DNA from: Psammoneis japonica
Taxonomy: Eukaryota
Reading direction: 5' to 3'
DNA: 64,000 nt
NCBI GenBank assembly: GCA_008632985.1
Contig: QPGO01000044.1
Location: 62,001 to 126,000, forward strand
The position numbers were made by a program, and so were the translations under genes. Of the stretch, positions 535-42,049 are shown piece by piece; the first letter of the stretch is position 1; every line of letters begins with the position of its first letter. The notes below the pieces were generated by a model that was not told the origin of the DNA, searched no databases, and was given only the letters and a program-made list of their open reading frames with translations.

Positions 535-795
535 TGCTGCTGTTGTTGTTCTTGTGAGCCAAGTGGCTCAAAAGCAAACCACATCGCGCATTGTGCGCGG
601 AACCAAGAGCACACACAATTGTGTGTGATGAGCTGGAATCTTGTTCAAATCCTGTCAATGTTGGCACTGCTGTTGTTGTTTTTGTGAGCCAAGTGGCTTG
701 AAAGCTGCATCGCATGTCACACACGGAACTGAGAGCGCACATGATTGTGCAGGACAAACTGAAACCTTGGTCAAATCCTGTCACTGCAAGAACAC
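535..795. repeat. Tandem duplication of ~130 bp inside decayed repeat DNA
   Basis: tgctgttgttgtt(c/t)ttgtgagccaagtggct ... tcaaatcctgtca occurs twice (about 535-665 and 666-795). Confidence 0.7.
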
Positions 796-1865: not shown

Positions 1866-2213
1866 GGGGTGGTCATTTGTTGCTTTTCTTGGCTCAAATT
1901 TGGCCGAAAAGCTCATGATTTGCACGAATTTTCCTGAATTTCACCGTGCTTCAATGTGGTAAAAACATCAAGCCATGTGTCTGTGACAGAGATGGCCCGT
2001 CTTTCAACTCTCATCTTTTTCATGTTCGTTGTGCATTTTGAAGGTCGCATGTGCACCAACTGTTTGAGGACGGACCACTGCGTTTTTGGGTGCCTGATGT
2101 CCTCGTTTTCGTGTGCGATCGGGTGTGAATGCGAATGACTTTTGTAGTCAAAAAGTGCACACTATAACTTTTTTCAATGCCACGGTAATTCTAAGATAAA
2201 CGGGGGGATGACC
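1866..2213. mobile_element. MITE, decayed copy of the 2787-3173 family
   Basis: Colinear with 2787-3173 apart from one internal gap. Ends ...ggggatgacc followed by TTAA (2214-2217). Carries many TA->TG/CA and CG->CA differences in its left part. Confidence 0.8.
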
Positions 2214-9844: not shown

Positions 9845-12282
9845 CTTGCCGTCTACAATTTGCACCTGCTTGGCAGAAGTCAATGGCAATGAGAGCACCA
9901 CAGCACTAATTTTGTGCCGCCTTGTTTGTGTCAGCACAGCACAGCACCTGGCATTTGGTGTTTGTACCGGCATTCAACGGCTCACAAGAAAAGCAGGTGC
10001 GCAAGTGTTGTCAAGTGTGTGTGAACTTGAGGTTTGTTTTTTCCCAACGCCAATCCGATCGGTTGGATGCCTGTTGATCATTCACATGTCACTTGTCTCG
10101 TCATTCTGTCATGAACAGTCTATGGTGTCCGTTGAAAGATTCAACGGAAATCCGGTTAAAGTACGGTAAGAGGATCCGTTAACTCAACGCCAATCGCATG
10201 CGCGATTTTGCGGCCCACGTCTGGCCGCAAAATTCTTATCGCAAATTTTTGCGACCCACATGTGGGCCGCAAATCGGTCTTAATTTTTAAAACAAAGCTG
10301 TCTCGTCATTGTTTTTGTGGGAAAAATCAACGTTGGAAGTGATGTGACACAATCCGAACAACAACAAACCCATTGTTGCCACCAAACATCAACACTGCAC
10401 TGTCATTTCCCGAAGACCAAAATGCACAATCAATCCCTCTTGTTGTTGCTTTCCAAAAGTGCCTCTTGAACGAGACCCAAAAAGGGCAGACTGGGCAAGA
10501 GGGGTCATGATTGAAACTCAGGATGGCACTGCACTCTGACATGGTGGGGATGGTTTGGCATTCAAATGACAATGATGGATCATGGGCAGCCAAGACTTTT
10601 CCCAACAAGCCACTGGAGCAACGTGTGGTGGCGAATGACTGAGAACAGACATGTGAGTGTTGTTGTTTTTCAAAACCCGCAAGAGCAAAGATACAGTGGC
10701 AAAGACACAGTGGCATTTGCACCCTTGCCAATTCCCAAAGCCACTGGGAGCAACGATGCTGTCGGCACTCTTGAGCTTGTTCCACGCCTCCCCCTGCTCC
10801 GCTTCCACCTCGTCTTCCAATTGGTCGCCTCGACCAAAACCAGTTCCAAGTGACACTGACAACTAATGGCAGCATGCTGGAATGGTGAAAGAACACCAGT
10901 GAGCAATTGTTGCAAGCAACAACAATGCAAACTCATGTTTCTTCTTTTCCCAGTCCAAGCTTTGCTGCCTCTCTCTCTCTCTCTTGCTTTGCTGCACCAC
11001 CTTTCCTTTCTGTTCCACTGGCTCATGTTCACTAGATCTGCATTTTCAGAAGGATGCTGTGTGGATGTGTGAGGAGCACAGCACAGTTAAGAAAATCCTG
11101 ACAAACAAGCTGAGTTGGAGTTTCACTGAGATTTGGAAGAACTCGGTCCACCCGGCCTTCACTTCATTGTGTTCCCACCAGCACTGCCTTTTGTGAATTT
11201 GCTCTTGCAGCCAAATGGCAGGCCAGTTGCCTGGGCTATCTCTCTGCTCATTTGGCAACATCAACAGTCCAGTGCTGGGTGTTGAAGCACTCCCATCTTC
11301 TGGGAGATGTCCATCTGCTGCAAAACAGTCCGCGGAAGCTTGACACATGTGGCCCTTGCATTGGCGGGTCATCAGATCAAGATCTAGAAGATCCCACCTT
11401 TGGCTTGTGTTTTTAGATGGTTGCTTGACAAAAGCATTTCAAAGAGTGCATCACAGAACCTCTTAAATGAAGAACACACCAAATCATGTGCTTCAGCTTG
11501 TGTGCTTTTGGGGATGGCCCACAGAAAAGTTGACTGCCCAGTGGAGATCATTGGATGCATTGGAGCAGTTCTTGTTGCTGTCATGAGCTTGATTGCAGTT
11601 GTTGACAGCTGAGAGGGTGGCAATTTAACAGGTTGGCTGCAGACCAGTTATCTTCATCTATGAATCAGCTTGCTGTGAATGGTGAAAGAGGAGCAAAAAT
11701 GGGTGGAGTGTGGCTTTGGCTGCGAACTCCGTTCAAGTTGTAGAGGAGAGATCTTGTCTGCTTTGTCAGATGAACCCAGGTTCTAGATGTTGTTCCATGT
11801 CAGTGCATCTGGTTCCATCATCTTGAAGAAATTGTCTTAATCCACTTGCACCAGGCATTCATGTGAACCCATTCCAATCAACACTGCATGGAACATTTCC
11901 CATTGTGGTCTTGTGCCTCCAACAATGGTGCACAGTCATGGAGCAAAATGGGGCTCCCCCTGTTGCTTGGAACATGCTGAGGAAAACCGCTTCTCCTTCT
12001 AAACACATTGTTTGGCTTCACTCTGCAGGAGACTCATGCAGGACATCTCACAGTGAGCTCAATGTGTGGTCTGCATTGCCATTCAATGGGCGGCTTGTGA
12101 AGAAGCTCTTCCAGGCATTTGCCAGCAACATGGTGAGCAAACTGTCATTCTTAGAAGACTGAGACAACTTTCTAGAGCTTGCAACACATGACAATGATCA
12201 TCTCACAGTGTTGTCAACAATGTCCAATGTTGTTGAAAAATGACTGTTAACTTCAGTGCGCAAAATTGAATTCACCGAATGT

Positions 12283-12302
12283 CACACACACACACACACA
12301 CA
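12283..12302. repeat. (CA)n microsatellite
   Basis: About 10 CA units, at the point where the copia remnant ends. Confidence 0.9.
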
Positions 12303-12317
12303 GCCAAAACAATCTGT

Positions 12318-15300
12318 TCAACTGTCTGATTGTTTGTCCATCCCAATTTCACATGCCACATGCACAAACCACTCTGACTCAGAGGACCAACAAAGCATGG
12401 CAGCATCTGCACTCTTGATCCCTTCTGGGAACTGATCAATCATCTGGTGAATGCAGTTGGTCATGTCAGCCTTCATCTTGCCTTTCTTGTTGGTGAAGTC
12501 TAGGGTCACAGCAAGCCAGCCATGCTCCTTCCCTCATGCTTTTGGGTTCATGTGGGTTGCCAACAGGTCATCCACATGGAAATGCATGGCACGCTTCTTG
12601 CCATTGATGATCTGATTGGCAATGCACAGATTGTGTGGGTTGAACACAAACCAAATCTTTCCCAAGTCTTTGCAAAATTGCTTGTCCCACAGCAGAGCTT
12701 TTGCCAACATGCCATGCACAGCTCTGATGACTCTAACACAGAGAACTCTCTTCCCCTTCTCCATGACCACATGTGGCCCATGCAGGTTGGGAACAATGCT
12801 CACCAACATGTTGACCAATGCTCCTCTGCAATCTTCATCCTTGGGCTCCAGAATCAGAGTCTGCATGAATGCATTTGGTGCATCAGCATTGCAGTCTCTG
12901 CCGCTGGCTTTCCTTCTGATGATGCCATTGGGCTGGCTGACTTGTCCTTGTCTGGCCATTCTCCAATCAATTTCTCATTGTGAACCACTTGTCCTTTCAT
13001 GTGACCATCTCATTTCTCTGTTGGGAATGTGATCAAGATGACCACAGCCTTGGTCCTCTCAGTCACAACAATGTCCTTGACCAATGCTGCTGCTGGTGCA
13101 AAGCACACTTGGTCGTGCAGCTGTTTGGCATCTTTCTCTGAGGCATCATGCCCCTTCTGGTCAAGTGCTTTTAGGCCTTCATGTGGCAAGTGCTGTTGAG
13201 CAAAGGAAATGCCCTTCCCTGATTGGAGTTGGTTGTCAATCTTGCACATGAATTGTGCTGGCACCATTGCTGTTTCTGTGTTGCACCCAATGTCATCGGC
13301 TGGATTGGGGCTCATCTTTGTTTGTAAATGGCAACAGAACTCAAGTTAGTTTTGCTCTTACTCTGCTTTGGCATCTCTGCCACTCCTGCAAATTGAACTT
13401 TCTTTTCTCTGAATTGATGTGATTTGATGTTGAAGGATGCACCAATCTTCAATTTATCTGCTTCCCATCTTCTGTCTTTTGGGATTCATCATCATCTTAT
13501 GACTCTTTGTTGTTGTTGTCTTCTGACTTTTTGTCATCTTCATCTTCTTCATTGCCTTTTTCAGGACTTTCTCATTCTTGTGCTGTTGATTGGGGCTGGA
13601 TCTTTTGTTGGCTGGAGCCTTGTTTGCTTCTTTACACTCACAGTCTGAGTCTGCTTTGTCTCCACAACCTTTGTCTTCTGACTTGGTCATGTTGTTCATT
13701 TCTATTTTGATCTTTGTCTTTGCTTTCATTGCTGCTTTTGCTTTCATTGTTGTCTGCTCCAGTGGTCTAATCAGCATTGTGCAGATTGTCTCCATGTTTG
13801 CCATGAATTTGAGTTCTCTGATGCCTTGCACTGTGGCCATCATCTCAACACAGCTTGTGTGTGCATGTCAGTCAAGGGTGCAGCAATGCATTTGCAAGAT
13901 TCAAAAGCTTGCCCATGTGCAAGCTCATGGTGCAGGGGCCACCCATGGGCAAGAAATCAAAACATGGTTGCAGGTGGGTGATGCTGTCAACACCATGCAC
14001 ATGTCCACATTGTTCATTGGTTCATGCTCAATGTGAGATGGCACAAATTCCCCAAATGTGAACTTGGAGAGTTTGTTGCAATCAAAGCTTCTTCATTGCA
14101 TGACAGTGAATGTGTTGTAAATTCCCTCCTTCTGTGGCACATGTTCAACATGACAGTGTTCTTGGTCACAGCATGCTTGCACATCAACTTGGGTGTCATC
14201 TTGTGTGGCAGGTCATGCACAGTGGCTTGAGTTCACTCCTTGATGTTCAAGAACATGGTCGCTTGCATTTGTGGACATCAGCTCTAGATTCATGCCATCC
14301 ACGACTTCTGCCAACATTGCCTTGAACTCAATGAAATCAATCTTGAATGAAGCTGCATTGTGCTGTTGAAGAATCATGTCCAGTGCACCACAGATGTCAA
14401 CATGCTTCTTGGACTTCAGTCTTACACTTGATTTGTGCTCTGTCACTCTTGTCTGTCATGTGCAGCAGCTTGACACTGCATGGTTCCATGACATCAATGC
14501 AGAGGATCATGCCTTCTCTCTGCTTCTTGTGTGTCTCAGGTGGTGCGACCATGATGTCATTTCTCAAGTAGGAGTGTGTGCATGTTTGGTCTTGCCCTTT
14601 AATGTGTCCATTGTTGGATCCTAAATGGCCTTCATCTCCTGTCCATGTCTTTGGGTGCAATGGACAAGTTGTTCTCACCTGGTTTGAATGCAAAAATGGC
14701 TTAAAATCCCTCATGTTGGGCACTCCAGCCTTGCTGTGTGGTCTGAGTGCTCACTCAGCATTCGACACCTCCCTCTTGGTGTGGGGCCTTTGAAACTCTG
14801 CTCTGCTGTTTCCAGATGCACTCCTGTGCTTTTTGTTGCTTGCTGTTGTTGTTGTTCTTCTTTGACAGCATGCTCACATGTGACTTCTGCTTTCTCTTGG
14901 AAATCTTTCACATGTTTAAAGAACTTCTGGCTTGGTGGCTGCAAAGGTGCAAAGCCTTGTGTTGCTCACTTTGAATGCCACAGCTTGCTTGCCAGTCTTC
15001 TTGTCCTGTGGGCAGAGCTTGTTCACCACTTGGTTGTCACACGCAATGCAGCACTTGCTCTTTACATTTTTTAAACTGAGGATGTTTGCCATTGTCTTCT
15101 GTGATCTTAGCAGCTCATGCCCCCCATCCAGGCACGGTGCAGTTTTTGTCTAAAGTGTCCACTTCTGTGTTTGTGGACAAATCAATCTTGGTCTTTGCTG
15201 GTCACACATTGTGCACCAGTCTCCTGCTTGCTGCCATGCTGAGGGCAGAGCCATTGTCAGGAGGATGATTTCATCCTCTTCAATGCCTGCATTGGCTTGG

Positions 15301-16760
15301 TTCTTGCTCATCTCTGCTTTCTTGCTTGCCAGTTGAAACCTGTGCCATGCATTGCTTCTCCTGTTTCAGCTGGAGCAGGTTGATTGGTTGGATTTGGTGA
15401 TGTCAACACTCATGTTGTCACCATCCACCAACAAATGGTCAACACCTCTTGTCTGTGTGTGACTCTGTCCTCAAATGTCCAACTTTTTTGCTTCTGGTGT
15501 TCTTGAGCCAGTTGTCAAATGCAATGTCAACTCAATGCTTGCAGTCTGGGGGGCTTGTGATTTGGTTCACTGCAACAGCAACACACTGTGGCATTGCTCT
15601 GGGGTTGCTCTTCTGGGCATGGCTCTTGTCTCTTGGGTCATCAGACTTTCCATTTGTTCTCGTTGTTGCACTCTTCTTGTTGTTTGTGCACACTCATTGT
15701 TCCTGTCATTGTGTCATTCATGAGGATTGCTGTTTTTCAGATGGTTCAGCACTGCATCCATTGCTTTGTCTGGGGTCTTTGGATGGGTGGTGTCTTTGTC
15801 CAGGCTGCAGTCTCTCATGAAGTTTTTCTTTGGGCTCTTGCAGTGACAATCATTGCTGTTCTCCATGAACAGCAAGAAAGTTGCTTGTTTCTCAAATGTT
15901 GTCTCCTGCAGCATGTCTTGGGCTGTCACAGTGCCTTCCTTGCACTCCTTGGTGTTGGAAATGAGCTCATCTGGCATTCTGTTTCCCAGTTGCTTGCAGC
16001 TTCTTGCTGATTCTTGAATCTTGACAGGTGATCATTCCAGTGACTTGTTCTTCTCTTGCCTCACATCCAGTGTGTTCTTCAAGGACTTGGCAAGTGCAAT
16101 TGTCTTGTTGTCTTTGAGAGCTGCTTTGTCTTGTGACAGTGTTTGTGTGATGCCACTTTGTGCTGACACTCCATTTCTTTGTCTTCTTGCTGCTTCTCTG
16201 ACAGCTTGACTTGGTGTGTTGTGGGGTCCGAAGTTGCTGCCAATGTCCAGACATGTTCAAGTCAGGTCTCCAGGAAGTGAAATCCTTGCATTTCATGTCT
16301 TTTGAAGATCTTGCCAAGTGCATGCCTCATGCACACTCTTTCTGCATGTGATGGATGATCTTTTCTTTGATGCCTTCATGCGTTGCATGGTGAGAGTTGC
16401 CATTCAGTGGCTCAGGCTGGAACTTCACCTCAGGCTGAAAGCTCTTCTCAGGGTCAGTCTTTTTCTTGAAACAAGAGGACTTGTGACTCTTGTCACCTCT
16501 GGCTGCTGTGACCACAACCTTGGCCTTGGTCTTCGCCACTTGCCCCACCTCCTCCTCTGCCACTCATTTTGTGGGGTTCTGGTGCTGGCCCACTGCACAA
16601 GGGTCAGTGTCTGCAAGCACTGAGTGCAGTGCCAGCAACTCTTTGGACAGCGAATGTTGAACTGGCAAGTCAATGTCACCAAAAAGAAATCCTGCCAGGC
16701 TTCCTGTGCTGCTTGATGCACTTAAATTGCACAAACCAAATGACACTCTCCAAAGAGTGA
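12318..16760 (-). mobile_element. Decayed Ty1/copia LTR retrotransposon (gag, integrase, RT; 3' end truncated)
   Basis: RT remnants ADAPNAFMQT, RAVHGMLAKALLWDKQF, FNPHNLCIANQIINGK..FHVDDLLATH and MTLDFT..GKMKADMT. Integrase-like segments at ~14000-14550 and gag-like segments at ~15700-16560. Copia domain order; many stops and frameshifts. Confidence 0.9.
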
Positions 16761-16768
16761 GATGAAGT

Positions 16769-17058
16769 TGAAAGGTGAGAGGCTGGTGTCAACAAAATCT
16801 TGCTCACAAAGAGTTGTCAAATGAGCCATGGCAGGAGCCATGACATTTCTTTTCTTCAACACACCCAGGTTCTTTGTGCTTTAGCCATGACATGGACATT
16901 CCAACAAGAGGCAGGGGTGGCAGAGGACAAGAACCCCCTCTGGGCAAGAACAGGCCAGAAAGAGAGAACTCTGAACACAATGAGCACCAAATTGCACTTG
17001 GAGAACTGGAACTTGTCAAACAAGAACAGGAGAAAAATGCCAGCTGGAGGATGCTACA
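16769..17058 (-). repeat. Possible 5' LTR of the copia element
   Basis: On the minus strand it starts TGTAG at 17058, abutting the Ngaro tail repeat, and ends ...tttCA upstream of gag. No second LTR is available to confirm it. Confidence 0.3.
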
Positions 17059-17059
17059 A

Positions 17060-17920
17060 GATGCACTGTGGCTCTCTGGCAAAAACCAGAGGGGAGCTGG
17101 TGGCTCTGTTGTTGGACTGGAATGGCTTTGCCAGTGGATGCACAAGCCTCATTCCCAAAACCCAAGCTGGAATGACAGGGCCAGAGGGTGGGAGAGGTGG
17201 GAGCATTAAAAACTGTCTGTCTGCTTGTTGCTGTTGCTCTTGGTTGCTCTTTGAAAAAATGAGAAAGAGCACAAGGTGAAGAGCAAAAATGGCCATTGCT
17301 TCAATCTTGTGCAAGCACGTTCAAATTTTTCAAGGGCAGAAAAAAAGTGACCCAACGGTCAGCGTGGGTCATTTTGCCTTGTCAAATGTCACAAGGAGGG
17401 TGGCTGATGCTGCCCTTCTTGTTTGTTCTCCTGCGGCTCTCTAGCAATGACCATGGGGGAGCTGGTGGCTCTGTTGTTGGACCGACTAGAATGGCTTCAC
17501 TGGTGGATGTGCAAGCCTCATTCCCAAAACCCAAGCTGGAGCAGCAGGGTCAGAGGGCGGGAGAGGTGGGAGTGTCAAAAGTTGTCTGCTTGCAGCTGTT
17601 GCTCTTGGTTGCTCTTTGGAAGAATGAGAAAGAGCATGAGGTGAAGAGCAAATGGCCATTGCTTTAATCTTGCACAAGCACATTCAAATTTTTCAATGGC
17701 TGAAAAAAGTGACCCAACGGTCAGTGTGGGTCATTTTGCCTCATCAAATGTGGGTCATTTTGCCTCATCAAATGGCTGTCACTGCCCTTCTTGTTTGTTC
17801 TTTGCAGCTCTCTGGCAAAAACCAGAGGGGAGCTGGTGGTTCCATTGTTGGACTGGAATGGCTTTGCCAGCGGATGCACAAGCCTCACCTCCCAAAACCC
17901 AAGCTGGAATGGCAGGGTCT
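17060..17920. repeat. ~365-bp unit repeated about 2.4 times at the 3' end of the Ngaro-like element
   Basis: The block ggggagctggtgg...cccaaaacccaagctgga appears three times. The block aaaaaagtgacccaacggtcag appears twice here and again at ~24378-24400. Confidence 0.85.
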
Positions 17921-20900
17921 TCCAGCACCACCCACAGTGTGATGCACTTTTTTGAGGCATGCACCATTGGGAGGGTGGGTGGGGAAGGCTGGCTGTGGCA
18001 ATCCAGCCCTGTGAATCTTTTGGATTCATGAGGATGTCAGCATTTGGGTGCAGGGCAAAATTGCCACCAGTGAGCATGTTGTGAGCAAAGTTGCACATGA
18101 CAGGTTCTGCCCACAAGTGCAGGTGGCGTGCAACATTTCATCAGATTGCCAATGGCCCAAGAGCTGAGTGAAGTCTGCATTGACATTGGCACAGAGGAGT
18201 GCCATGGCACCAGCTGTGTGAAGGCACACCAAGCAGTGACATCTCAGGTGTTAAAGCCAAGATTTGCCAGATTGCAAGCAACAACAGCAGCGCACAAAGC
18301 ACACGTGACATGTCAGAAGGGGACACACAATGCCAGGCATCATTTTGAAAATAGATGCCAAGGGGTGTGTTGGGGAGTGTGCCATGAGATTGGAGATGTT
18401 AGACGCAGTGGACAAGTGCCTGGGTTGGGCACAAATTGGGGTGTCCCGAGTGGCCGAGTCCCAAAACTTTCCCGCGAATGCCATTCTTCTGCATGGTGAA
18501 AGTGAGAGTGGCAAATGTGGCAGCATCAAGCTGAGCATTGGTGGCTTGGAGAAGGTTTGAACAAATGCCACCTCTGGATGCCAGGCAGACATCAGCAAGA
18601 TGGACTGGTGTGGCATCGGATGGCGTGGTGGTGCTGGGATGCAGCAAACAAAAGAGTGTGATGGCAATCATGTCGGCAACAGCCTTTGCACCAGGGTCAA
18701 AACTGTTGGAGGCGGTGTGCATGACCCAGGTGAGGATGGCCACCGGGACCAGTTTTACATGGTTGGGCCTCTTTCTTGTAGAAACAGATTTGCCGGGTGA
18801 GGCAGAAATCCACGCCGCTTTGGGGTGTGCAGAGTGGGTCTGGGGACCCCATTGCAGCAAACATTTGGTCAACTGACCATTCAGCATGTTCAGCAGCATG
18901 TCCATGGATGGGATTTCTACATGGGGCAATGGCTCCTGTGCAGCATCAGTGGAGGAAGACTTGCAGAAAGACAACAGAGTCATCAATGTCTTGGAGTGGT
19001 GGGTCGAGGACCACAGTGGTGCAGAACTCACACACTTGTCCCAATGGGCATTGGCAGAGGATGCTCTTGAATTGGCAATGCCATGTGCCACAGCATGTTG
19101 CGCAGCATTGTTGAGATCACGAATGAACTCAATTCTGGTGGTGGTGTCCAAAGGTGCCAGGAGAGTGTCTGCGGGTGACAAAGGTTAAAATGGTGCAGAA
19201 ATTCATGGTTGGCCAGGGATTGCAGGTGTGAGGCATCATCATCAGCAGAGTTAAGGTGTCCTGGCCAGTGATCATGGAGACCAAGGTGCCGGTGGCAGCT
19301 TTGGTGGAATGCTTGGTGTTCTCAACAGCTCGGATGCTGGCTTGATGGTTGCAGCAGATCCTTTTTGTTGCCAGCACATCATGCCCAAGTTGTCAGTGCA
19401 GGAGAGGTTGGTGCACTCTCAAATGTCACAACAATCCGCCGCAGCATGTGATTGGATGACACTGCCTGCCAGTTTGAGGTCTGTGCCAGTGATTGGGCCC
19501 CAAGGGTTCTTGCATGTGGCAAGGTGGGACATGACACTTTTGGGAAAGGGGAGGCACCACACAATGGGGCCAGTGTCACATTGAGCACAGGTGCATCCAT
19601 TGCCAAAGCAAAGTGTGGTGGCACACAGGATGGTTGTGTTGGTTGGGAAGAGCATGCCCCCTGCTCCATGCTCTGCTGTGTCATGACAGCTGGTGACATT
19701 TGGTGTCAGCAGCACCAGCTCTGGGATGCAAGCTGGGCATGATTCAAGGATGGCCTTGAGCTTGCAAAAATTGTCTGGTGCCAAGTGGGCATTGGGCGTG
19801 AGGCAGACTTGTGAGTCTGGTGCAGTGTGGAGGAGGTTTTGCTGAAGTTCCAAGTGCAAATTGCATGAGCCCAGCACTCTGATGCTGAGGGAGCTTCTGG
19901 CAGTCAGTGATGGTGGCACGCTTTTTTGGTGCAAGGAAAAAGTCCTTGTGCAGCACAGTGCAAAGTTGTTCATGCTGACATGGTGGAAGGTGGAGGGTCA
20001 TGGACTGCATGTCAACAATGATCCAGCCCACAAGACTTCCTTCTGTGCTGACCAAGTGGCATCACCCTTGCAGAGCTTTTTGACAGATGCAGGCTCCTTG
20101 TGGGTGGCAGGGGTGGCAGAATCAAGTGGTCAAAAGATGTTGTCCAAAGCATGCAGGACGACCTGGTGGACATTGAGGCATGCGTGGCAGGATCCTTGAG
20201 AGGTGCCGATAAAATCATTGACACACACTTCAATGCAATGCAGACAATGATGGCGGTGGTGGTTTCAGTGGGGGTCTGGTTGCTCAGGGACAGGCACTGT
20301 GTGTGCATTGGAATTTGTTGGTGGTGGTTGGTGCTTGGGTGGTCGACCAGTCAGGTGACATTCCAAAGGGTGGGGAGGCATCTGCACTTTGTGCACAAGG
20401 TCCAAGTTGGCCATGTCAGCTGCCATCTTGGCAGCAGTGCCAAACAATGGTGGTAAGTTGGCCATTGGGAAATGGGTGGGAAAGGGCATGTGTGATCCAC
20501 AACAGGGTGTGGCCAGCAACCATGCTGTGGGACCACTCCAATGGGGCTGGGGTGCAGTCCTGGTGTGTTGCACACTTCTTCACAAGGAACAACCATCCAG
20601 AAACCCTTTTCCACCCTGCCGGCCATGTCTTCACACAAAAACTTGATGTGTTCACAGGCGGAGTTATGAGGTCCTCTGTCAACACTGGCATCTGGCTCAG
20701 CATGTGTCCATGGGGCATCAGTGATGGTGACTGGGGTTCCCTGATGCTTGAAGGCTGTCAGCAGTTGGTGAGCTGGGTGCCATTGGCTGTGGTTCAGCGG
20801 TCCCCAATCTCCTCTGCCACTGCAAGAACACATCAAGCAGCTGAGTCCTTCATGATGCAATGATGCATTGTCAGTTTTAATGTGCACACCCAATTCATCA

Positions 20901-23309
20901 TTGCAAATTGCAGCAGCCACATCCTGTCCATGTGTGGTGAGGCAGGTGTGCTGCCTTTTGAAACTCTCCACAAGTGGGGGTTGTGGATGTGCTGGTTGTT
21001 TGGCTGACACATGCAACAGCTCTTGCTGGCAACAAGTCCCCACATTCACACCATTGCCGAAGACCCATTCAGTCTCCCAGTGTTTCTCACCCCAGGCAAG
21101 GAATTGCTGCTGCTTTTTGTCATTGTGGTCATCATGGTGATCACAGCTGGAGCCACAGTTGGAGTTGCACTGCCCTTTGATGTGGCAAGGGTTGCAGCAG
21201 ATGTGTCTTTGGTTGTCTTTGGGCAGCTTGATCTTGTCCCAGGCACAATGCATTTTTACCTCACATGAGTGCACATTGGGGTGATTGTGCAGCATTGTGA
21301 AGCACAAGTCACAAGATGGGTTCTGAACAATGCTGTTGGTGCTGTGCAAGCAGAGTCCACAGGGCTGAGACTTGTGTGCTTGCCATGTCCAACTTGATGG
21401 CTTCCAATGTCATGCCAGCTGTGCTGGTGGGAAGCATGGTGGGTGGCAAGCTGAGGCACCAAAGCATTGTCCCCTCAGCTGCCTTGTGAATGATGCTGTG
21501 CCCCGTGAACAGGATCTCCTGGTGCACTGTTGCTTGAGACAGGAACCAATGACATGGCTCAACCTGTGCACATTGCTGGAAGTTGACAGGCAGGGTCAGA
21601 TGAAGTGTGTGCTGGTGCACCAGCTTGTCAGCACACCTGTCCATGTTTGTACACTGCAGAGTGAGCCACCACTGCACAATGTGGTGGTTTTCACCTGGGG
21701 TGGCAGAGCAGACAAGGCGGCATCAGTCATGTGATTGCATGGCTGCCTGCGCAGTTGTTGCCACCAGTGCCTTGTCCGGTGCCTTGAGCAGCTGCGCATC
21801 TTGTGGCAATGGCACTCCTGCTCCTCCATGGATCTGCGCATGCATTGCATTGTGGCAGGCAATTTGCTCAGTTGTGTGTGGGGTGGTGAGTCTGAACAAG
21901 AAAGGGTTGAAAGTTGCGCCAACTTGGTGATGAGGCTCACCATTGCTGGCAGGTTGAAATGCACCTGAAGGGCTTGACGCTGCTGGTTGATGGCATTCTG
22001 GACCATGGCCAGATGTCCTGTCTTTGGCGCGGGTGCCAATGCAGCCCACAGTGGAGACAGTGCAGCCTCATTGCATGTCTGGCACCAATGCAGGATCTTT
22101 GTAACCCCAAAGACTCCCCAGAACTCTGCTGGCATCTTGCCTCATGTGGCAGCCATGTGCCTTGCTCCTCATCCAACCGCTGCTGTCGCTGCTCTGTGGC
22201 AAGTTCCTTGATGGTGGCAATTGCAGGCTGGAACTGCTGTGGTTGGATCTGTGTCCTTCCCCTGTGGCCCTGCAGGTCTTGTTCTACCTTGCAATCAAAG
22301 AAACAGATTGGTGCATCATTGGGAGGGTGCATCATGGTTGGCCAAGGCTGCACTGCTGCTGACTGGAGCTGTGCATTCTGCATGGTGCAACACACAACCC
22401 ACAGGTGATCTACAAGTGGCTCCAGTGCCACAAGCTTGTTGGCAGCTGTGGCTGCTCAATGGTTCCTTACATGCATGTCCTTTGGGCCAAGGGGCACAGG
22501 CAGGAGCAGACAGATGAACCCAAAAGGCACAAACATTGCACCGCATCTCATCACCTCTTCAGAGTCCTGTGCATCAGCTTGCACGTGTGGGTGGAGGCCA
22601 TTCGGCACAGCCACAACATGTGCTTGAAGCATGTTGTTGTGTGTCAGAACCCAAGTCCCTTGACCAGTCAGAACAAACAAATTGTCCCCAAACTCCATGA
22701 GTGTGAACTGGCCATGTGTCAGATTGCCTGCAACAGCATGTGTGCCATCGTCCCATGGTTGTGCTGTCATCTCATGGTTGAGCCGGTCCCACCACAGCAG
22801 CCGGGCAAGTTGAGACATGATGCAACACCTGCGTTTGCCCTTCATTGGTGGTGCCATTGGTGTGCCATCGGGAGGTTGTCACTCGAAGCCAATGTGACCC
22901 TGCCTTGTGGCACACCTGGGTCACACCGTGATGCTCCTTGCGCAGGCACAGCAAAATCCAGCACAGCTTCAGTGCAGTCACCATGGTGTGGGTCTTGTTT
23001 GGTGTCTGACAAAAAATGGTCTTGGCAGTTTCACATTGCTGGTGGCACCACTGGGATGCCTCCCCTGGCGGTGGTGGTGGTGCGCGGTTGGGCTGGTCCT
23101 GTGAGGTGGCAGCGGCGCATTTCCCGCAGCTGCAGCTGGTTGTTGTGCTGGTGCTCGGCTCTGCCTGTGGTTGTGGCACCGCTGCATTTACGTTGGGGGC
23201 ATTCTGCCCCCCTTGTGCCCCTGGCACGGCTCTTTCATGTGGTGTGGCTCCTCCTGCGAACAAACAAGAGCGGAGGATGCTGTTGCTCTTGGTTGCTGTT
23301 GGTTGGGGA

Positions 23310-24325
23310 AACTACCTGGCAGCACGTGCACGTGAGAAGTTCACGTGCAATGTCACCCAGTGGCGCGGGGGGAGGGACAGACGTGGGGCAATGGTGGAAC
23401 GGAGTCATGTGGGTGGGAAAAGGGATGGATTTCGAGTTGGGGTTTGATGTTTGTGATTGTAGTTTGGTGGAGCAGCAGGTTAGTTGGTCAGCGAGCGATT
23501 TGGCATTCGCGAGGCTCAGGCTCTGTAGACCCCATTGTGATGGTGTTGAGGAGTGGTGGGTTGGGCCAAAGCATTCGGCAGAGATGGTTTGCCAAGTGGC
23601 GGTGGCAGTGGGGAGGATGGCAGATGGGGATTGTTGGGCGCAGGCGCACGCGGCGTGGGCAGCTGGGTGTTGAAAACAAGTTTCAGTGTTCCAAGGTGGG
23701 GCGGGTGGAGCAGGGATGGGGAGGTTTTGGTTGGTGCCAAAAAGAAGGCGGTGGGCGAAGTAGCCTGGAGCTCCTGGGTGGTCCATGGCAAAGGGAATGA
23801 GGTGGATGCCGGCGTTGTTAAGGGTGGATGTAAGGGTTGCTTCATGTTGGGTCTCGTGGGTTCCGTTGAACTTCCGTTTTGTGCTCACATGGTGTGCCTC
23901 GGAATGAGGGTTAAGGGTGGGGGCAGGCAAGCCAGGAGCAGGCAATGGGGGAGGTTTAGGGACAGTGACGTCAATGGCGAGGTGTTGGTGGCCAAGAGGG
24001 GAGGCAGTGGAGGCGGCTGGGGTGAGTTGGATGCCTGCGTCAGCAGGGTGTTTGAGGGGCGAATGAGGCATCAGATTGGCTGGTTTGTGGTGCGCGGCGG
24101 AAGAGTTGGCACAGATGCCGGAGAGTGGGGCAAGTGTTTGGAAAGCAGCGCAGAGGCCGTCGCGGATGGCGTTGGACATGGTTGTTTTGTGTTCGAGGGA
24201 TCGACAACAGAAGGCATGGTCACAGCATGGGTCAATGGTGCCAGAGCAAGAGGGGCAAGAGGTGGACTCGAGTTGGTGGGGCGAGATGGGGAGCCGCAGT
24301 TTGTGTTGCAGCATCAGGCAGAACT
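23310..24325 (-). mobile_element. 3' fragment of an RLE-type (CRE-like) non-LTR retrotransposon within the Ngaro 5' repeat
   Basis: LQHKLRLPI, CPSCSGTIDPCCDHAFCC..SNAIRDGL (zinc knuckle), HPADAGI, LAIDVTV, KRKF, LIPFAMDHPG: the pattern of a PD-(D/E)xK restriction-like endonuclease C-terminus. Confidence 0.7.
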
Positions 24326-24717
24326 GGGCCGTTGCTTTAATCTTGCGCGCAAGCGCGTTCAAATTTTCCAACGGCTGAAAAAAGTGACCCAACGGTCAGC
24401 GCGGGTCATTTCGCCTCGTCCATGTCACGAGGTGGGTGTCACAGCGCACCCAGTCGACAGGTGACGCGTTCATGTGGCTTCCACGTGTCAACGCGTGACA
24501 TCGTCGAAAACCGGGCGGTGAACGGCCGACTCGCATACATCCAGAAATTCAGAAAACAGATAAAAGATTCATTCAAAAAAGATCTTCTTTACAGTAGTAG
24601 GGCTATCGGTTCGCAATTACCAGCATAGCAGATAGCAGCAGCACCAACAACAAAAAACTGTTTGTGTGTTGACCCAGTCATCATCCTTGTTTATCATACG
24701 GTATTGTTATTCACACC

Positions 24718-26232
24718 ATGCCCAAGAAATCCATTTCCGACTTGACGGATGCCGACCTTGAAGGCAAGAAGGTCTTGGTTCGTTGTGATTTAAACGTTCC
24801 TCGTGAGTAGCCCTTGTTCTGCAGCTGCATCTTGGAAAGCCTTCTGCAAGGCTGATCCACAGGCATCCGTCACAAACAAGACTCGCTCAACCTTTCCATT
24901 GCCCGTTTTTCGTTCTTTTCGTTTCGTTCAGTGGACGGCAAGACAATCACTGACGATACGCGCATTCGTTCGTCGCTTCCCACTCTGAAATATCTCGTCG
25001 ACAAGGGAGCCATTGTTGCCGTGTGCTCTCACTTGGGCCGTCCTAAGAATGGCCCCGAAGACAAGTTTTCCCTCGAGCCGTGTGCCGCGCACATGAGCAA
25101 GCTGCTCAAGCCCGTCAAGTTTGTGTCGGACTGTGTCGGTACGGAGGTTGCAGAGGCGGTGGCAGCGGCGAAGAATGGAGACGTCATCATGCTAGAGAAC
25201 ACCCGTTTCTACAAGGAAGAAACCAAGAACGATGCGGCTTTTGCCGAGAAGCTGGCTTCTCCTTTCGATCTCTACGTCAATGATGCCTTTGGATCAGCCC
25301 ATCGTGCTCATGCCTCCACCGAGGGTGTGACTCACTTTTTGAGTCCCTGTGTTTCAGGCTTTTTACTTGCCAAGGAGCTCGAGTATCTCGATGGTGCCGT
25401 TTCGTCTGGCAAAAAGCCACTTGCGGCCATTGTCGGTGGTGCCAAGGTGAGCTCGAAAATCACCGTTTTGAACAGTTTGCTCGACAAGTGTGACTTGGTG
25501 GTGATTGGTGGAGGCATGGTGTTTACCTTTCTCAAGGCCAAGGGTCTCGGCGTGGGCACGTCGCTGGTCGAGGACGACTTTATCGATACCGCCAAGCAAG
25601 TTTTGGCCAAGGCGGAGGAACTGGGCAAGAAAATTTTGCTCCCCGTCGACATTGTCGTGGCGGACGCGTTTAGTGCCGACGCAAACACCAAGATTGTTCC
25701 CGTCGACGAAATCCCCGACGGATGGATGGGACTGGATAACGGCCCCAAGACGACGGAGGAGCAGAAGGAAGCTCTATCGAGCTGCAATGTAAGTGTTTGA
25801 AAAGATTCCCGTTTGTTTCATACTCGATTGTACTAAAACGTTTCGTTTTGAACTTTGTGCTTTTTGCCCTTGAATGGCTCAGACCATGTAAGTTGAATAC
25901 TCAGTGCCCCACGTCCAAGTCGTGCTGTGCCCTTTTCTCATTACATTTTCTTTTCTTACGCTTCCGTTCATTCTTAAAGCATTATGAATGGACCCATGGG
26001 CGTGTTTGAAATGGATAAGTTCGCGGCGGGTACCTTCGCCCTGGTTGGTATTTTAGCCGACTTGACTAAGGACAAGGGCGCTATTACGATTATTGGTGGC
26101 GGTGACTCGGTGGCGGCCACGGAAAAGAGTGGTCGCGCAGGTGACATGTCTCACATTTCCACTGGAGGTGGAGCCTCTCTTGAGCTTTTGGAAGGAAAGG
26201 TCTTGCCTGGAGTGGATGCTCTTGATGAATAA
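24718..26232 (+). CDS. PGK: Phosphoglycerate kinase, probably cytosolic; exons 24718-24802, 24932-25788, 25883-25887, 25980-26232
   Basis: [91 protein letters not shown]. All three introns are GT-AG and restore the frame. No presequence. Confidence 0.97.
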
Positions 26233-26574
26233 TTAGCTTATGGTCTTTAGAAGCAGAGTTTTACAATATCTTTTATGCTCTTCCGGTTGTGCGAAATTCT
26301 CTTGGTCGAATCCCCACGTTTTGAGTATAATCGCAGTCGAGAGCAATCAGCGTTCAAATGACGAGTTCAAGCTACAAAAATTATAAACTTTGCCCTTAAG
26401 AGATTTGGTGCTACAACCTGTAAAGGAGCTTAGCGAGGTGTAGGAAAGAACACATGCCCTGCACTTTTCGAATGCTGTACTGGATGTTGTCGGCAGCAGG
26501 GATTCAGTGCGGACATGACAAATAAATTATTATTTCAAGATGGTTGGTTGGCTATCTTATATCAAAGAAAGAAT

Positions 26575-28249: not shown

Positions 28250-31200
28250 GTTGCACCATGACGGAAGCGACAGCGCATTGCCAACTCTGTGAAACAGAGG
28301 TTTCTGGCCAGTGCAAGCTGCTGAAAGTTGTGCTTGTGCCCACTCTTGATGGACAGATGGGCAGTGTTAGCTTTGTTGCTGGCCACCCACCAAAAACTTT
28401 GGTCGAGCAGGAAGTGGCACCCATCTTCAGAACAAAATGCAGCAGAAATCATCTTCACAAAGCTTGGCTCAGATCTGGCATCATCATCAAATGCCCCTGT
28501 GCTGATTGTGCCATCTGCAGACAAGATTGAAGCCCAGACTCTCTGATGAATCTAACACAAAGCTCTCCCAAGAAATGAAAAGAACAGCGTGTGGTTTCTG
28601 GAGCCCAAGAACGGCTCAAAAAGGAACTTGCACAATGCAGAAAAGCAGCCCAAGGCTCAGCTCTGTAAAGCCTTGGCTGCCAGGCTGCTCAGGGGGTGCT
28701 GCTTCTCACAAGCTTGGCTGCAATGAGGATGAGTTTGGGGGGCTTTGATGCATCTTTGCACTCTGCTGAGTGCACCGGGTGCGCCGCTGTTGAGATGTGT
28801 TCTGACAAGGTTGCTGATGATCAAGAAGGCTTTGCCATTTTAGAAACAAAGTGTTTTGCAGTGTTTTGCCTTTGTCCCAGTGACTTCTCTGACAAGTGCT
28901 CCTCCAACGGATGCAGTGAACAGCTCCTGACTGCAGAGAGCGCATGTTTGAGTTGGGAAAACACCTGGAGCCACCAAGCTCAGCAAATGATGTGCAGATG
29001 ACACCTGCAAATGCTGCAACCAGGCTGCTAAAGAGCAAGAAGCTGCATCTGTGGCTGCAGATCCAGATGCTGAAGATGGGCTTTGGTGTTGTGCACTGTG
29101 ATGATGGTGAGTGCAAGTTTGACCAAGATCTCCAAGACAGCAAAGCCAAAGATGAAACCAATGCCACAGATGAGCCAGCCTGTGACATGCTGATGAGTGT
29201 CAAGATCACCCTGATGAGTGCACAAGGTGATGCCACCATCTGCAATCAAGCCATGGATGTGGGTGATTTCATGGAACTTGTGGAAAGCAATTGCAGTCAC
29301 AATCACTGTGCTGCACAGCACCCACTGCAACGGTGGCTCTGAAATCACCACTGGAGTTTCTCCAATCAATGTTGCTCCAACTGTGTTGGAGACAAAGTGT
29401 CCCTTTGGCAACTCACTGGAGCACACTTTGACATGACCAACTCTGTGTTTTGCAACAAACACAAGTGGTGTGCCTCCTGTCTTGACAATGAACAAGAAGG
29501 GGCATGTGGGACATTTTTGATTGCCTTGTGTTTGCTTTGCACTTTGTTTGATCACTCTCTGCTTGAAGAGAGGAGTTGAAGCAAGCTTGCCTTTGCCCAC
29601 TCTGTTTTGTGTGAAGCAAATGATGATGACAGCAGCAACAGCCATCAGAGCAAGGGCTGCAATGACCCCAAAGTTTGGAGATTAGCCATGAGCTCCATGA
29701 GCGAAGTGCAAAGTGTTGTCAAAATCATCTTGTCTTTGACATCAGTGAATGTCAACACTGGTGCACTGGGTGTCAGACAAGCAATTGTCTGCCACCACTT
29801 TCTGCCCCAAGAGCACAATTTTTTTTGACTTTTTGCCCCTCAATGACTTGCATGTCTCTCATTCTTGTTTTCGTTGTGTCTGGTGGGGCAACAATCTGAG
29901 ATGCACGCCAGCATGACAAAATTTCCGTCATTTCAGAAAGTTGGATTTGTCTTGTGTTGTTAATTGCTTGATGCAAATGCTGCATGCTGGCATGCAGACA
30001 ACTGATGTTGTGCGTTAAGCCAAGCTGCAATCTTGCACGCTCATGCTTGAGTTGATTCATGCAACACAATCTTGTCACCTGCCACATGTCTTTTTTACCA
30101 CATGGTTCGTCCCACTCATTTTCATCTCACTTCTTATTGCAACTCAAACAATGGTGGCCCCCTTTGCCATCGGAAATGATTGTCCCAAGTGTGGCAAACA
30201 TTTTCTCCCAACTGGTCTTCAACACCACCTGAGAACTTGTCTCCCCTGCAAACTGGCCTTTTCTCAAAGCCTTTTTGACGTTTCTTCCGGTCAATCCGAT
30301 GCCGCTCATGACAAACATTCCCAAATGGGAGAATCAGATGAATGAGTGGACGTTGCTGCCTCTTCTACCCTTGGCTCTCCTTCATTTGAATTTCTTGCCG
30401 CCGGGCCCGACTCCAATGCCATGCCAACTCCACAAGTTTACACGAGACACAATCCCCGGCCATTGCGCTCCAATCATGCCATCTCATCTGTGCCAGAGCT
30501 GCGTGGTTCCCACAACAATTCCGTTCTTCCCCACGCCGATGATGTTTCAGAGTGCCAGTTTCCTGACAATGAAGAACTTGTTTCCAACACCAAGGGTTCT
30601 GCCACCACGGTTGCCAATTCTGTCCCTTTTGCCACACTTGATCAAGTTGGACACCTCTCCGCTGACAAGGACCTTGTGGTGCCCAAAGTTCACAACTGCA
30701 AAATTACATCCATGGTCCGCATGTTGAATTTGTGTTGCTCCAAGGGTGTCCCAATCAGTGCAACAGATGAATTGCTGAGAACTGTGCAGGAGGAATTCTC
30801 CAGTGGTGGGTTGTCTGTCACTGACAAAGTGCGACACGATGGGTGGCCTTGGATGCATTGCATCGACAAAGGGCATCCTGGAATGCGTGTTTTCCTGCCT
30901 CAGCTGGAAAATGACATAGAAAATGGATTTGGTTCACAAACTGTTGAGGCCACATGTGCTCAATGCTTTGTGAGAAACAGTGGAGCAAGACAACACATTG
31001 CAAATGTGGAGATGCAACTTGGGCAATCCCAGCTGCACTTTGATGAGGCGACACCGGATTGCAAGGCTGTTGCATCAGTTGCGAAAGAGACCACATTGAG
31101 GGAGCATTCCAGATGTTCAGTTTGCACAAAAAACTGGATAAAAGCAGAACATGCATCGACTCTTGGGCACTCAATTGTCATGTTGCGGTGGGACATGTGG

Positions 31201-33400
31201 GTGGTGCCAGGTTGCTGCAGGTGCAGCTTGCAACCATTTTTGAAGGAGTGGGTGCAAAACAACAGAATCCGTTGCAACATGTGCATGGACAAAGTGACTT
31301 TGACGCTAGATTTGGTTGACTTTGAAGTGGAGATGCCGGTCGACCTTGCAATGCAAAACCCTTGCATGATCATGATGGCTTGCCAAAAAAATGACATGGA
31401 GTGCTGGTTCCCAAAAATCATGTGTGCTCTGCCACCTGTCAGAGAGGATGCGGTGGTGCAAGAGATGACACCAGGTTGGACGTGGTTCATCTTAACGAAC
31501 ACGATGCCGGTGTAGACGTCCCCTGGCCTTTCGCAGAGTGACATTGCCCACCTCCAGTGAGCAGAGACTTGGCATTGCACTGGAAAGTGCTCTTGGGAAT
31601 GAGGGTGTTCTGCACAGGAGTGCACGCATCCAGAGAGGGTCACATCAGTGGATTGCACCAAATTGCGGAGAGTCTGTGCAAATCTTACGAAACAGCGAGA
31701 GAAGAAGCGGGTGTCATGGAGGAAGACAGAAGGGTGAGAGCAAGACTGGACGATGAGTGAGGGTAAAGAGATGAGCCTAATTTCCTAGAAAGTTTTAACT
31801 GGAGCTGGATGACCAAATCATGAAAATTTTAAAAGCACTGGCCAGTTGCAAACTGCCAGCATGTGAAACATTGCGGGTGACAAACAGGGGACAGCCAAGA
31901 GCATGGGGACCCAGACGGCAAAGCAAGATGTCGCAGGCCAGCTAAAAATGCAAAAAGAGGTGTTCGGACTACAGCCCTTTCATCTATGAAAACACGCCCA
32001 AAAAAAAAAATTAGATGGCGATTTGAAAATTCCAGCTAACAACAGTTGGGAGTGCCATTGTTCTTTGTGCGGATCATGCAAAATGTGGTGAACGGACAAT
32101 GTGAGGATGCAAACAACAACACCTGCCATTCAAAAGCAATGCAAAATTCATCAATTGATGTTCAACAATGAGTGATTTTTGAAAATTTTGGCATTCAAAG
32201 AGAGGGAGCATTTTTAAGAATGACAAACAGGCATGCTGGCAGGCATGCACTCCAGGACTGGGTTTGGTCTGAGGGAGGAATTTTGTTGGCACAAAACACG
32301 TTGGAGTGGGTGAGCAAACATGTCGGTGTGAAACGATTCATCAGGTACGTGCGTTGCACTGACGTTGCACAAACGGGTTGGCCTGCTTGTGCTGATCTTG
32401 TGTCCTTCGTTGCAGTTGGCACCCATGACATGGCAGAGACAGGATCACACAATGTGGAGATTGTGGGAATGTTGGTCATCAGCTTGGAGGCAGCAAGGAG
32501 AAAGTTCAAGACAAAGTTCGTGACACATGACAAGGTCGAGTTGGCTTTTGGGAGCAAAATGCAGAAAAAAGTTTGCAAACACCTCAACATGGATGCGAGT
32601 GACTGTGCAGTTTGGTGGGAGAGAACAAGGAGAAGGTGAGGAAAAGACCAAACAGGAGAAGAAACAACAGGCAGGAGGTTTTTAGAAAGAAGTTGGTTGG
32701 CAAGCACTGTCCAGGCTGTGCATGGATGAGATGGAGCAGTGTTCTCACAAATTGATTCTTGCTCAGAGATGGCCAGATACGATGGAATGCCAAGCGTCAA
32801 AGACATCAAAAAGGGCAGGGCGTTGCCTCAAATGCACTTCTGGTTCTTGGAAAATTGCTGCTCCCTGGCAGCAGGAATGGAACACTTTAAAACAGTGGAC
32901 AGCCAAGGTGTCAGCAATTGGCTGACAACAAGTGCAGAAGCTTTTGCCAGGGTGATGCATGACAACTGCTGCAATGCGGCCATGTCGGTGGCAGAGATCA
33001 AAGAGCAATTCGAACAAAATGGTGGGGTGCAACAACCAACCCAGCCGGTGGCCCCAAAGTGCACTTTCATGGGGAAAGGTGCAAAGCAAATCAAGGATGG
33101 AACCAGGATGGGATCGACAAGTGCAACAAACTCTACGATGCGGTGGCGAAGGAGAGAATGGATTGCAGCAGAGTCGATGCACAGCACCTGCAGACAAAAA
33201 ATCGGAGAGCACACACAGCAAGAAAAGAAAGAAGAAAAAGAAGGACAACATGAGGGGATGGGCAGCTCCAAAAACAGATTGGAGTGACAGCAAGGAGGAG
33301 GCCACAGGAAGGAATGACAAAGAGGGAGCAAAGAGGAAGAGACTCCAGAAGCAGCAGCAACTGACAACAGCACTTTGACACAAATGGGTTCTCAGAGGCA
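28250..33400 (+). mobile_element. Decayed DNA transposon, Plavaka/CMC-like, internally rearranged
   Basis: Zinc finger CPKCGKHF..LQHHLRTC and MLNLCCSKGVPISATDELL at ~30150-30810. Accessory-ORF motif TTSAEAFARVMHDN..KCT..GWNQDGIDKCNKLYDAVAKER at ~32900-33160. No catalytic core or termini recognised. Confidence 0.45.
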
Positions 33401-38690: not shown

Positions 38691-38771
38691 CACCTCGCCT
38701 CCTTGCTCGCTCGCGTTGTACACACGGTATGTTGGATGTAGGTTCCACTAAAACTGCCCTCGAAAATATTA

Positions 38772-41945: not shown

Positions 41946-42049
41946 TAGTCCAACGGACGAGAGGGCCTCTGACTCATGCTACACGGCACCGGTGTGGTCA
42001 TTGGCGCTCAATGACAAAAAAAAAAAACCGTTGAAAATGATTCTTCCGA

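Follow-up and report, generated by a model that had tools for sequence, protein, structure and literature searches.

Near-saturating loss of TpA and nested loss of CpG in transposon-derived blocks of a Psammoneis japonica contig: the probable scar of TpA-directed hypermutation

The DNA analysed here, 64,000 nucleotides of Psammoneis japonica (GenBank assembly GCA_008632985.1, contig QPGO01000044.1, positions 62,001 to 126,000 of the forward strand; in the following "the window", position 1 being its first letter), consists of gene islands of normal composition and six blocks that are almost devoid of the dinucleotide TpA and poor in CpG. This depletion is confirmed; it is real, extreme and far beyond chance. 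Its probable cause, in our opinion, is an in-place hypermutation of silenced transposon DNA that is specific for TpA, converts A:T to G:C and acts on both strands, accompanied by a separate decay of CpG.

Composition was expressed as the ratio of observed to expected dinucleotides (O/E), both in a per-kilobase table and in block statistics across the window. The six blocks comprise 41,485 bases, i.e. 65% of the 64 kb, and pooled they hold merely 180 TA (TpA O/E 0.07) and 581 CG (CpG O/E 0.23), with TpG and CpA raised to O/E 1.79 and 1.83, respectively. Individual blocks range from 0.03 to 0.09 for TpA, from 0.18 to 0.49 for CpG, from 1.68 to 2.03 for TpG and from 1.66 to 2.02 for CpA, as compared to 0.49-0.67 (pooled 0.61) for TpA and 0.95-1.06 (pooled 0.99) for CpG in the five gene islands. 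A first-pass annotation, made from the letters alone, had described six blocks poor in TA and CG and rich in TG and CA between normal islands, and the ratios bear this out for all six. The blocks, to which no strand applies, are listed below, the limits used for counting, where they differ, being those of that annotation.

1..2100: block 1, at the window start and continuing beyond it; counted over 1-2140, TA 6 (O/E 0.04), CG 60 (O/E 0.49), CpG thus being half depleted.
10350..24450: block 2, the block flagged in the annotation; counted over 10300-24300 (14,001 bases), TA 76 (O/E 0.09), CG 166 (O/E 0.19).
28300..37238: block 3; counted over 28260-37050, TA 52 (O/E 0.09), CG 135 (O/E 0.27).
41981..47816: block 4; counted over 42000-47650, TA 8 (O/E 0.03), CG 89 (O/E 0.23); TA-free gaps at 41980-43296 and 46079-47817.
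49500..53100: block 5; TA 10 (O/E 0.04), CG 52 (O/E 0.23).
56700..64000: block 6, at the window end and continuing beyond it; TA 28 (O/E 0.06), CG 79 (O/E 0.18).

Judged by TpA, the block edges are abrupt, extending over about 100 bases at most, and the longest TA-free gaps of the window measure 1738, 1572 and 1316 bases. The residual TAs in the blocks are mostly part of TTA or TAA (T precedes 95 and A follows 84 of 179), and ATA and TAT are nearly gone.

The depleted letters are supported by sequencing reads. A public run (X1) contains 0.95 of the 31-letter words sampled from a 9.9-kb probe, and its contigs were compared with the window over positions 10001-28400. Seven of them, with a word depth of 49-69, together span 8,953 bases of block 2 and differ from the window by no letter and no gap, and an X1 contig on the adjoining gene island has a depth of 60, which is about the single-copy depth. 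As exact 31-letter words at ~60-fold depth require accurate reads, an artefact of base calling or polishing is excluded. The first-pass annotation had named independent reads that retain TA and CG as one observation that would speak against its proposal; the accurate-read contigs carry the depleted letters instead. Over much of block 2 the X1 depth is raised, up to 1900 versus 60, and 1205 contigs show a likeness of 85-99%, implying that most of this block is repeated in the genome. Among the kinds of difference listed against these paralogous contigs, 327 of 423 are transitions, and CA/TG swaps are found at 10380-81, 23609-10 and 23775-76. Bins at 18597-22894, where the depth is only 76-178, are as depleted as bins at 800-1900, although heavy mutation in itself masks old copies.

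Two features of repetition in block 2 may be added. The part from 22895 to 24450, adjoining the start of the phosphoglycerate kinase (PGK) gene described below, has the highest genomic repetition (X1 depth 800-1900 versus 60) and is poor in TpA but retains CpG. Moreover, a unit of ~110 bases (24327-24438) is found again in a 370-base tandem-like array, at 17291-17402 and at 17654-17745 (region 17066-17919).

At least two degraded retrotransposon remnants, probably of the Ty1/Copia type, are still recognisable in the blocks:

12400..16100, minus strand: degraded Ty1/Copia remnant within block 2, with reverse transcriptase and weaker upstream polyprotein matches (tblastn 12396-16100; five homologues, all with a precomputed RVT_2 domain).
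34500..37348, plus strand: degraded Ty1/Copia remnant from integrase to reverse transcriptase (tblastn ~34500-37350; 442 homologues of the fragment 36704-37348).

The proteins matched by the two remnants carry RVT_2, gag_pre-integrs and SH3_retrovirus domains. The 442 relatives of the fragment 36704-37348 were obtained at E ≤ 0.001 by HMMER/phmmer among 1.84 billion representatives (best 1.9e-40), and all five long relatives scanned are Ty1/Copia polyproteins with RVT_2; on the Copia reverse transcriptase fragment of the window Pfam does not score RVT_2 even at E ≤ 1. Long terminal repeats (LTRs) were not found for either remnant. Both carry frameshifts, TGA stops and much further divergence, and the reverse transcriptase tail of the second passes the edge of CpG depletion and ends at that of TpA depletion. 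The earlier claim that depletion is confined to repeat-derived blocks is supported, with two Copia remnants identified and the islands normal. Comparison of the window with itself by BLAST gives only 13 pairs and nearly no paralogues inside blocks, hence no family could be aligned within the window.

The direction of change can be deduced from the pyrimidine-purine steps together with the conserved residues of the transposon proteins. The fraction of pyrimidine-purine steps is alike in blocks and islands (0.245 versus 0.243), but the share of TA and CG among these steps drops from 39.6% in the islands to 7.5% in the blocks, so that only transitions at those steps can be responsible. At columns conserved in the Copia homologues the remnants read as follows:

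Both remnants, conserved Tyr: 12 columns, none kept (His 6, Cys 4, Trp 1, Asp 1).
Both remnants, conserved Arg: 24 columns, 5 kept (Cys, His, Gln or TGA 15, other residues 4).
Remnant 12400..16100: Tyr kept at 0 of 8 columns (His 4, Cys 2, Trp 1, Asp 1), Arg at 2 of 10.
Remnant 34500..37348: Tyr kept at 0 of 4 columns (His 2, Cys 2), Arg at 3 of 14.

Replacement of conserved Tyr by His or Cys at an unchanged pyrimidine-purine fraction gives the direction TA to CA or TG. This agrees with the first-pass annotation, which had read TA as well as CG as the ancestral states and the conserved Tyr and Arg residues of the transposon proteins as destroyed. It also agrees in detail, as the window has QVDC, AICGL and LVHVED where the consensus of 29 homologues has QVDY, SLYGL and LVYVDD, matching the proposed changes of QVDY to QVDC, LYGLK to ICGLK and LVYVDD to LVHVED, and the further motif GCPVHVLD contains a conserved Tyr column at position 35525. 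For GHWQS (18143-18157, minus strand) and HVDDFI (43514) the presence in the window is confirmed. A native lack of TA is no trait of the family, in which 151 of 155 homologues contain at least 0.8% Tyr (median 2.9%), and related Copia loci in metagenomes have a TpA O/E of 0.43-0.89 in 49 of 50 cases. The fiftieth, a metagenome contig with a related Copia reverse transcriptase (L009, positions 1-1693), has a TpA O/E of 0.21, a CpG O/E of 0.54 and a TpG/CpA O/E of 1.47; two of its motif tyrosines are retained and two are His or Cys, and it looks like a partial or intermediate stage of the TpA scar in another sample.

Tyr to His requires T to C and Tyr to Cys requires A to G, and as both occur within one element, both strands must have been hit. 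Whether a site reads TG or CA does not depend on what its neighbour reads (lag-1 autocorrelation -0.02), and the labels form 4794 runs as compared to 4648 ± 46 in shuffles, i.e. there is a slight excess of alternation, which argues against processive single-strand events.

A segmental duplication allows the timing and the trigger of the changes to be addressed:

36892..38690, no strand: copy A, the tail of a Copia element followed by a sulfotransferase-like gene (37501-38619, minus strand), the gene part being of normal composition.
47461..49301, no strand: copy B, again a Copia tail with a sulfotransferase-like gene (48078-49217, minus strand), 92-93% identical to copy A.

Alignment of the copies shows 34 differences among 358 bases in the Copia tail (9.5%; 24 transitions, 10 transversions) and 67 among 1435 in the gene part (4.7%; 31 transitions, 36 transversions), the latter with normal TpA and CpG. 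The two tails have CG versus TG or CA at seven sites and show CA/TG swaps at the same dinucleotide. Excess divergence with CA/TG swaps in the tail only implies that the changes continued in place after the duplication and solely in the transposon part. The difference in divergence is an indirect sign, and the only one, that the mutation rate may be raised locally. The duplicated host gene was spared, thus duplication itself is no trigger. In this respect the system differs from repeat-induced point mutation (RIP) of fungi, which is triggered by duplication, and "RIP-like" in the strict sense, as the blocks had been called, does not apply: the gene segment of the 1.8-kb duplication is undepleted, and near single-copy stretches are as depleted as high-copy ones. 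What is shared with RIP of ascomycetes are irreversible transitions in mobile DNA and a dinucleotide scar in whole blocks beside normal genes. The outcome is nevertheless opposite, since RIP converts CpA to TpA and thereby creates TpA, according to the RIPCAL paper (PMC2621366) and as the first-pass annotation had correctly stated, whereas in the window TpA is destroyed and CpA enriched.

The losses of CpG and TpA differ in extent. When the sequence is divided into 256 windows of 250 bases, 165 prove low in TpA, and among these CpG is low in 112, intermediate in 43 and normal in 10; not one of the 256 is low in CpG at normal TpA. On the right side of block 2 CpG is back to normal from ~23100 but TpA stays low until ~24450, and on the right side of block 3 CpG resumes at ~37100 and TpA only at 37239, the stretch 37100-37238 being dense in CpG. 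CpG loss is thus nested within TpA loss, less complete and has edges of its own, suggesting two superimposed processes, and it is as two processes rather than one that the dual loss noticed earlier fits the data. The CpG part shows the pattern expected of 5-methylcytosine (5mC) decay, as seen in methylated repeats of vertebrates and plants, where CpG turns into TpG or CpA in repeats and CpG O/E is ~1 in genes: the values are 0.18-0.49 in blocks versus 0.95-1.06 in islands, and 15 of 24 conserved Arg columns read Cys, His, Gln or TGA. Such decay, however, explains the CpG half only. Repressive 5mC on repeats has been reported for diatoms (as cited in PMC12344493), and the blocks may carry this modification.

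Based on these findings we propose that the blocks would be old silenced transposon DNA, part of the nuclear genome of an alga with few introns, and shaped by two processes. The first would convert TpA to TpG or CpA on either strand, site by site and nearly to saturation, halting sharply at host genes. The second, slower one would be the decay of CpG to TpG or CpA only inside TpA-depleted DNA, as deamination of 5mC in methylated repeats would give. The combined outcome would be irreversible inactivation, with Tyr turned into His or Cys, Arg CGN codons turned into Cys, His, Gln or stop, and TAA and TAG stops vanishing. We infer that the first process is an enzymatic defence guided by chromatin or RNA.

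The mutation spectrum of the first process has been measured directly in the chlorarachniophyte Bigelowiella natans, where TpA-only A:T to G:C hypermutation strikes integrated viral DNA (Mettrop et al., bioRxiv 10.64898/2026.01.13.699255). According to the text of this preprint, 230 of 231 new mutations in integrated giant-virus and virophage regions of mutation-accumulation lines were A to G or T to C at TpA, arising in integrated DNA during clonal growth at a rate ~1000x background, with the giant-virus region being single copy; moreover, 124 clusters of 1-kb windows poor in TpA and rich in CpA and TpG were found in ~95 Mb, enriched for reverse transcriptase and DDE domains (10.64898/2026.01.13.699255). 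The statement in the first-pass annotation that no described pathway removes TpA is therefore outdated. This preprint was the sole match when the full-text literature was searched for loss of TpA, for hypermutation and for RIP, whether in repeats, in algae or in diatoms. Common to both systems are the conversion of TpA to TpG or CpA on both strands, the restriction to foreign or mobile-derived DNA and the sparing of host genes. The independence of copy number seen in B. natans may apply here too: the duplicated gene is spared and depletion is found at an X1 depth of 76-178. Furthermore, the TpA-poor predicted genes in B. natans are mostly unannotated, like the spurious block frames described below. 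On the other hand, B. natans belongs to the Rhizaria and has intron-rich genes, whereas the genes in the window are intron-poor and its PGK is nearest to those of diatoms; the targets there are integrated viruses and here LTR retrotransposons; and the rate there was measured, whereas the window displays the end state, without observed events. The degree differs as well, since in B. natans the depletion is mild and TpA-poor DNA rare (Rho TpA 0.45 in the virus region, cluster cut-off 0.43), but amounts to 65% of the window at 0.03-0.09.

As to the chemistry of the first process, we prefer, but only tentatively and in the knowledge that it may well prove wrong, a DNA deaminase of the nucleus, TadA/ADAT2-like or other, that turns the adenine of TpA into hypoxanthine. 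An ADAT2-like enzyme deaminating adenine in DNA is also what the B. natans authors propose in the text of their preprint (10.64898/2026.01.13.699255).

Alternatively, although we think this unlikely, the thymine might be the target, a TET/JBP-type oxygenase marking T at TpA of silenced repeats as 5-hydroxymethyl- or 5-formyluracil, which would mispair with G during replication and lead to T to C, with CpG decay again being a separate process. Mispairing of oxidised thymine does yield T to C changes, and the palindromic nature of TA, which hides whether A or T is hit, makes strand symmetry compatible with this chemistry. To our knowledge 5-hydroxymethyluracil (5hmU) has not been reported from diatoms, and this counts against a thymine target. 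The nearest parallel is 5hmU of dinoflagellates, a related lineage, where it takes the place of thymine above all in TA and TC and is linked with the silencing of transposons (PMC11572971). There it is an epigenetic mark and is not reported as a mutational scar, and a mark placed on TA plus TC would lower TpC/GpA too, which is undepleted in the window: the O/E values in the blocks, 0.97/0.94, are barely below those of the islands, 1.04/1.06.

We consider it improbable that one bifunctional deaminase, directed to a common set of targeted DNA, attacked the A of TpA as well as the C of CpG. The strict nesting of CpG loss in TpA-depleted DNA would be in line with such an enzyme, and ADAT2 enzymes are reported to edit A and C in DNA (cited in the text of 10.64898/2026.01.13.699255). 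However, saturation and edges of the two losses differ, with 53 of 165 TpA-low windows keeping intermediate or normal CpG and with CpG kept but TpA gone at 37100-37238 and 23100-24450. In addition, the geometries of the targets differ, i.e. the base after T versus the base before G, and the B. natans spectrum lacks a GC to AT component.

Highly improbable is an origin in RNA editing, in which an ADAR- or ADAT-like enzyme would have converted A to I in retrotransposon transcripts that were then reverse-transcribed into DNA. Both identified elements are indeed retrotransposons, and ADAR as well as fungal editing usually prefer an A that is preceded by U (10.64898/2026.01.13.699255). Animal ADAR hyperediting and APOBEC3 hypermutation of retroelements and viruses share with the window deaminase-type transitions directed against mobile or viral nucleic acid. 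These systems, however, act on RNA or single-stranded cDNA, in other contexts and in strand-coordinated clusters, whereas in the window both strands of resident DNA are altered and strand-coordinated clusters were not found, the TG/CA labels being uncorrelated. T to C and A to G changes lie on the sense strand of one and the same element, resident copies kept changing once a segmental duplication, host gene included, had taken place, and the depletion fills entire blocks with edges at host DNA. Finally, in B. natans the mutations are described as appearing while clones grow, in DNA that is already integrated.

If two modified dinucleotides were miscalled systematically, a similar picture might result, and X1 may be the sample of the assembly itself. 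Nevertheless, an artefact of sequencing, base calling or polishing due to modified bases has virtually no chance of being the explanation: contigs of exact 31-letter words agree without a difference at the depth of the gene island, which would be impossible with noisy long reads, and the elements contain frameshifts and TGA stops and have diverged in many other ways. Avoidance of short words is known in mobile DNA, yet that the elements natively evolved to avoid TA and CG, e.g. to escape a host nuclease or methylation, is to be given hardly any credence, since conserved tyrosines of catalytic motifs are lost and frames broken, relatives have normal TpA, and copies differ by CA/TG swaps. GC-biased gene conversion was dropped as it is not context-specific, and so were UV photoproducts at TA, which give A to T and not transitions.

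Several points weigh against TpA-directed hypermutation with separate CpG decay, or limit what the window can say about it. Pfam detects no transposon domain in the blocks, and for the greater part of these blocks the raised read depth and the two Copia remnants are the sole grounds for assigning them to repeats. X1, for which the library type is unrecorded, rules out miscalling but, possibly being the assembly's own sample, does not equal an independent strain. The CpG loss has no counterpart in the text of the B. natans preprint, which, supplementary tables aside, mentions neither CpG nor diatoms. Only 51 of the 164 mismatched conserved columns are revertible by one TA- or CG-type transition, the others requiring another transition (29), a transversion (47) or two or more changes (37). 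The public Copia homologues, however, are just 30-50% identical and thus too distant to stand in for the ancestor, which makes this reversion test a weak one rather than a contradiction; the poor reversion by single transitions points to much other divergence and thus to old elements. TA is self-complementary, and the sequence therefore cannot tell A from T as the chemical target. Lastly, 64 kb yield no enzyme, no base modification and no mutation rate.

If the resemblance to B. natans reflects a shared mechanism, a more general scheme may be conceived, which we put forward as a speculation with less than even prospects. An editor of double-stranded DNA directed to TpA, either an adenine deaminase or a thymine oxidase, might be guided by silent chromatin or small RNA and not by duplication, and might be common to rhizarian and stramenopile algae as their equivalent of RIP; in the organism studied here it would have reached saturation and, together with cytosine methylation, would kill transposons permanently. 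A mutational defence that erases TpA had previously been seen only in one chlorarachniophyte preprint from 2026, and the window presents the same signature at saturation on retrotransposons of what seems to be a diatom-like alga. If this holds, the process extends beyond a single species and beyond integrated viruses, and TpA erasure is able to remodel the larger part of a genomic region. The responsible gene could then be sought in a comparison of two distantly related genomes in which the scar occurs; under the general scheme, the gene sets of the organism studied here and of B. natans would point to a natural A:T to G:C editor of DNA.

The depletion also has consequences for annotation. In six frames the blocks contain 270 stops of the TAA/TAG type versus 1929 of the TGA type, and of 132 stop-to-stop frames with at least 120 codons 111 lie in blocks, corresponding to 2.7 per kb versus 0.9 per kb in the islands. 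The near-loss of TAA and TAG makes these long open frames a by-product of mutation. None of the 111 long block frames, all of which were scanned, reaches a Pfam gathering score: 104 frames at E ≤ 0.01 contain no transposon domain, two weak matches below the cut-off being at chance level, and the seven further ones match no family at E ≤ 0.001. Likewise, 12 block frames read through with stops as X match 0 Pfam families. Consequently, gene finders will call false genes in the blocks, and domain searches will miss the transposons.

The islands hold genes for PGK, a YbeY nuclease and a polysaccharide pyruvyl transferase as well as three sulfotransferase-like frames, two of which are part of the duplication. 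In the window ARAGORN predicts 0 tRNAs, Rfam gives 0 matches and a tandem-repeat search finds nothing relevant. Apart from the duplication the features are:

24652..26268, plus strand: PGK gene (Pfam PGK, 1.9e-110), ~200 bases from block 2, normal composition.
26575-27753, minus strand: third sulfotransferase-like frame, in another island.
8411-9973, minus strand: pyruvyl transferase, in another island.
38770..41947, plus strand: undepleted 3.2-kb unit with ~118-base inverted repeats (inverted match of 38770-38887 with 41947-41833, 88%).

The PGK gene has two GT..AG introns, 24803-24931 (129 bases) and 25789-25979 (191 bases), as revealed by a spliced contig of a second public run (X2), which is thereby RNA-like; its near-zero cover on block 2 is no evidence of silence. 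The N-terminus of PGK lacks a presequence. Its best matches are 77-82% identical and none reaches 90%; the named ones are from the diatoms Chaetoceros tenuissimus and Nitzschia sp., and the named diatom PGKs are 77-88% identical among themselves over the same columns. Long uninterrupted frames of up to 737 codons point to an intron-poor genome. The window thus probably belongs to a diatom-like ochrophyte, distinct from B. natans, with proteins not represented in the database searched. The sulfotransferase-like genes and the pyruvyl transferase may form a set for a sulfated or pyruvylated polysaccharide. The N-terminal half of the pyruvyl transferase frame (8850-9450) contains patches poor in TA and CG (e.g. 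TA 2 and CG 1 at 9150-9299), which could be due to the process leaking into the gene edge or to mere local composition.

The 3.2-kb unit contains an intact frame of 737 codons (39208-41421, plus strand) of normal composition, and block 4 begins directly at the right end of the unit. The product has no Pfam match, and a search of PDB sequences gives nothing below E 0.08; HxLRR...Y-like motifs seen by eye may resemble those of tyrosine recombinases. There are 24 unannotated homologues with 30-57% identity, mostly on contigs of 2.5-3.5 kb, and tblastn with this protein family detects no mutated copies elsewhere in the window. Possibly the unit is a mobile element that is young or exempt from the process, and its sparing means either that not all mobile-looking DNA is hit or that the unit arrived later.

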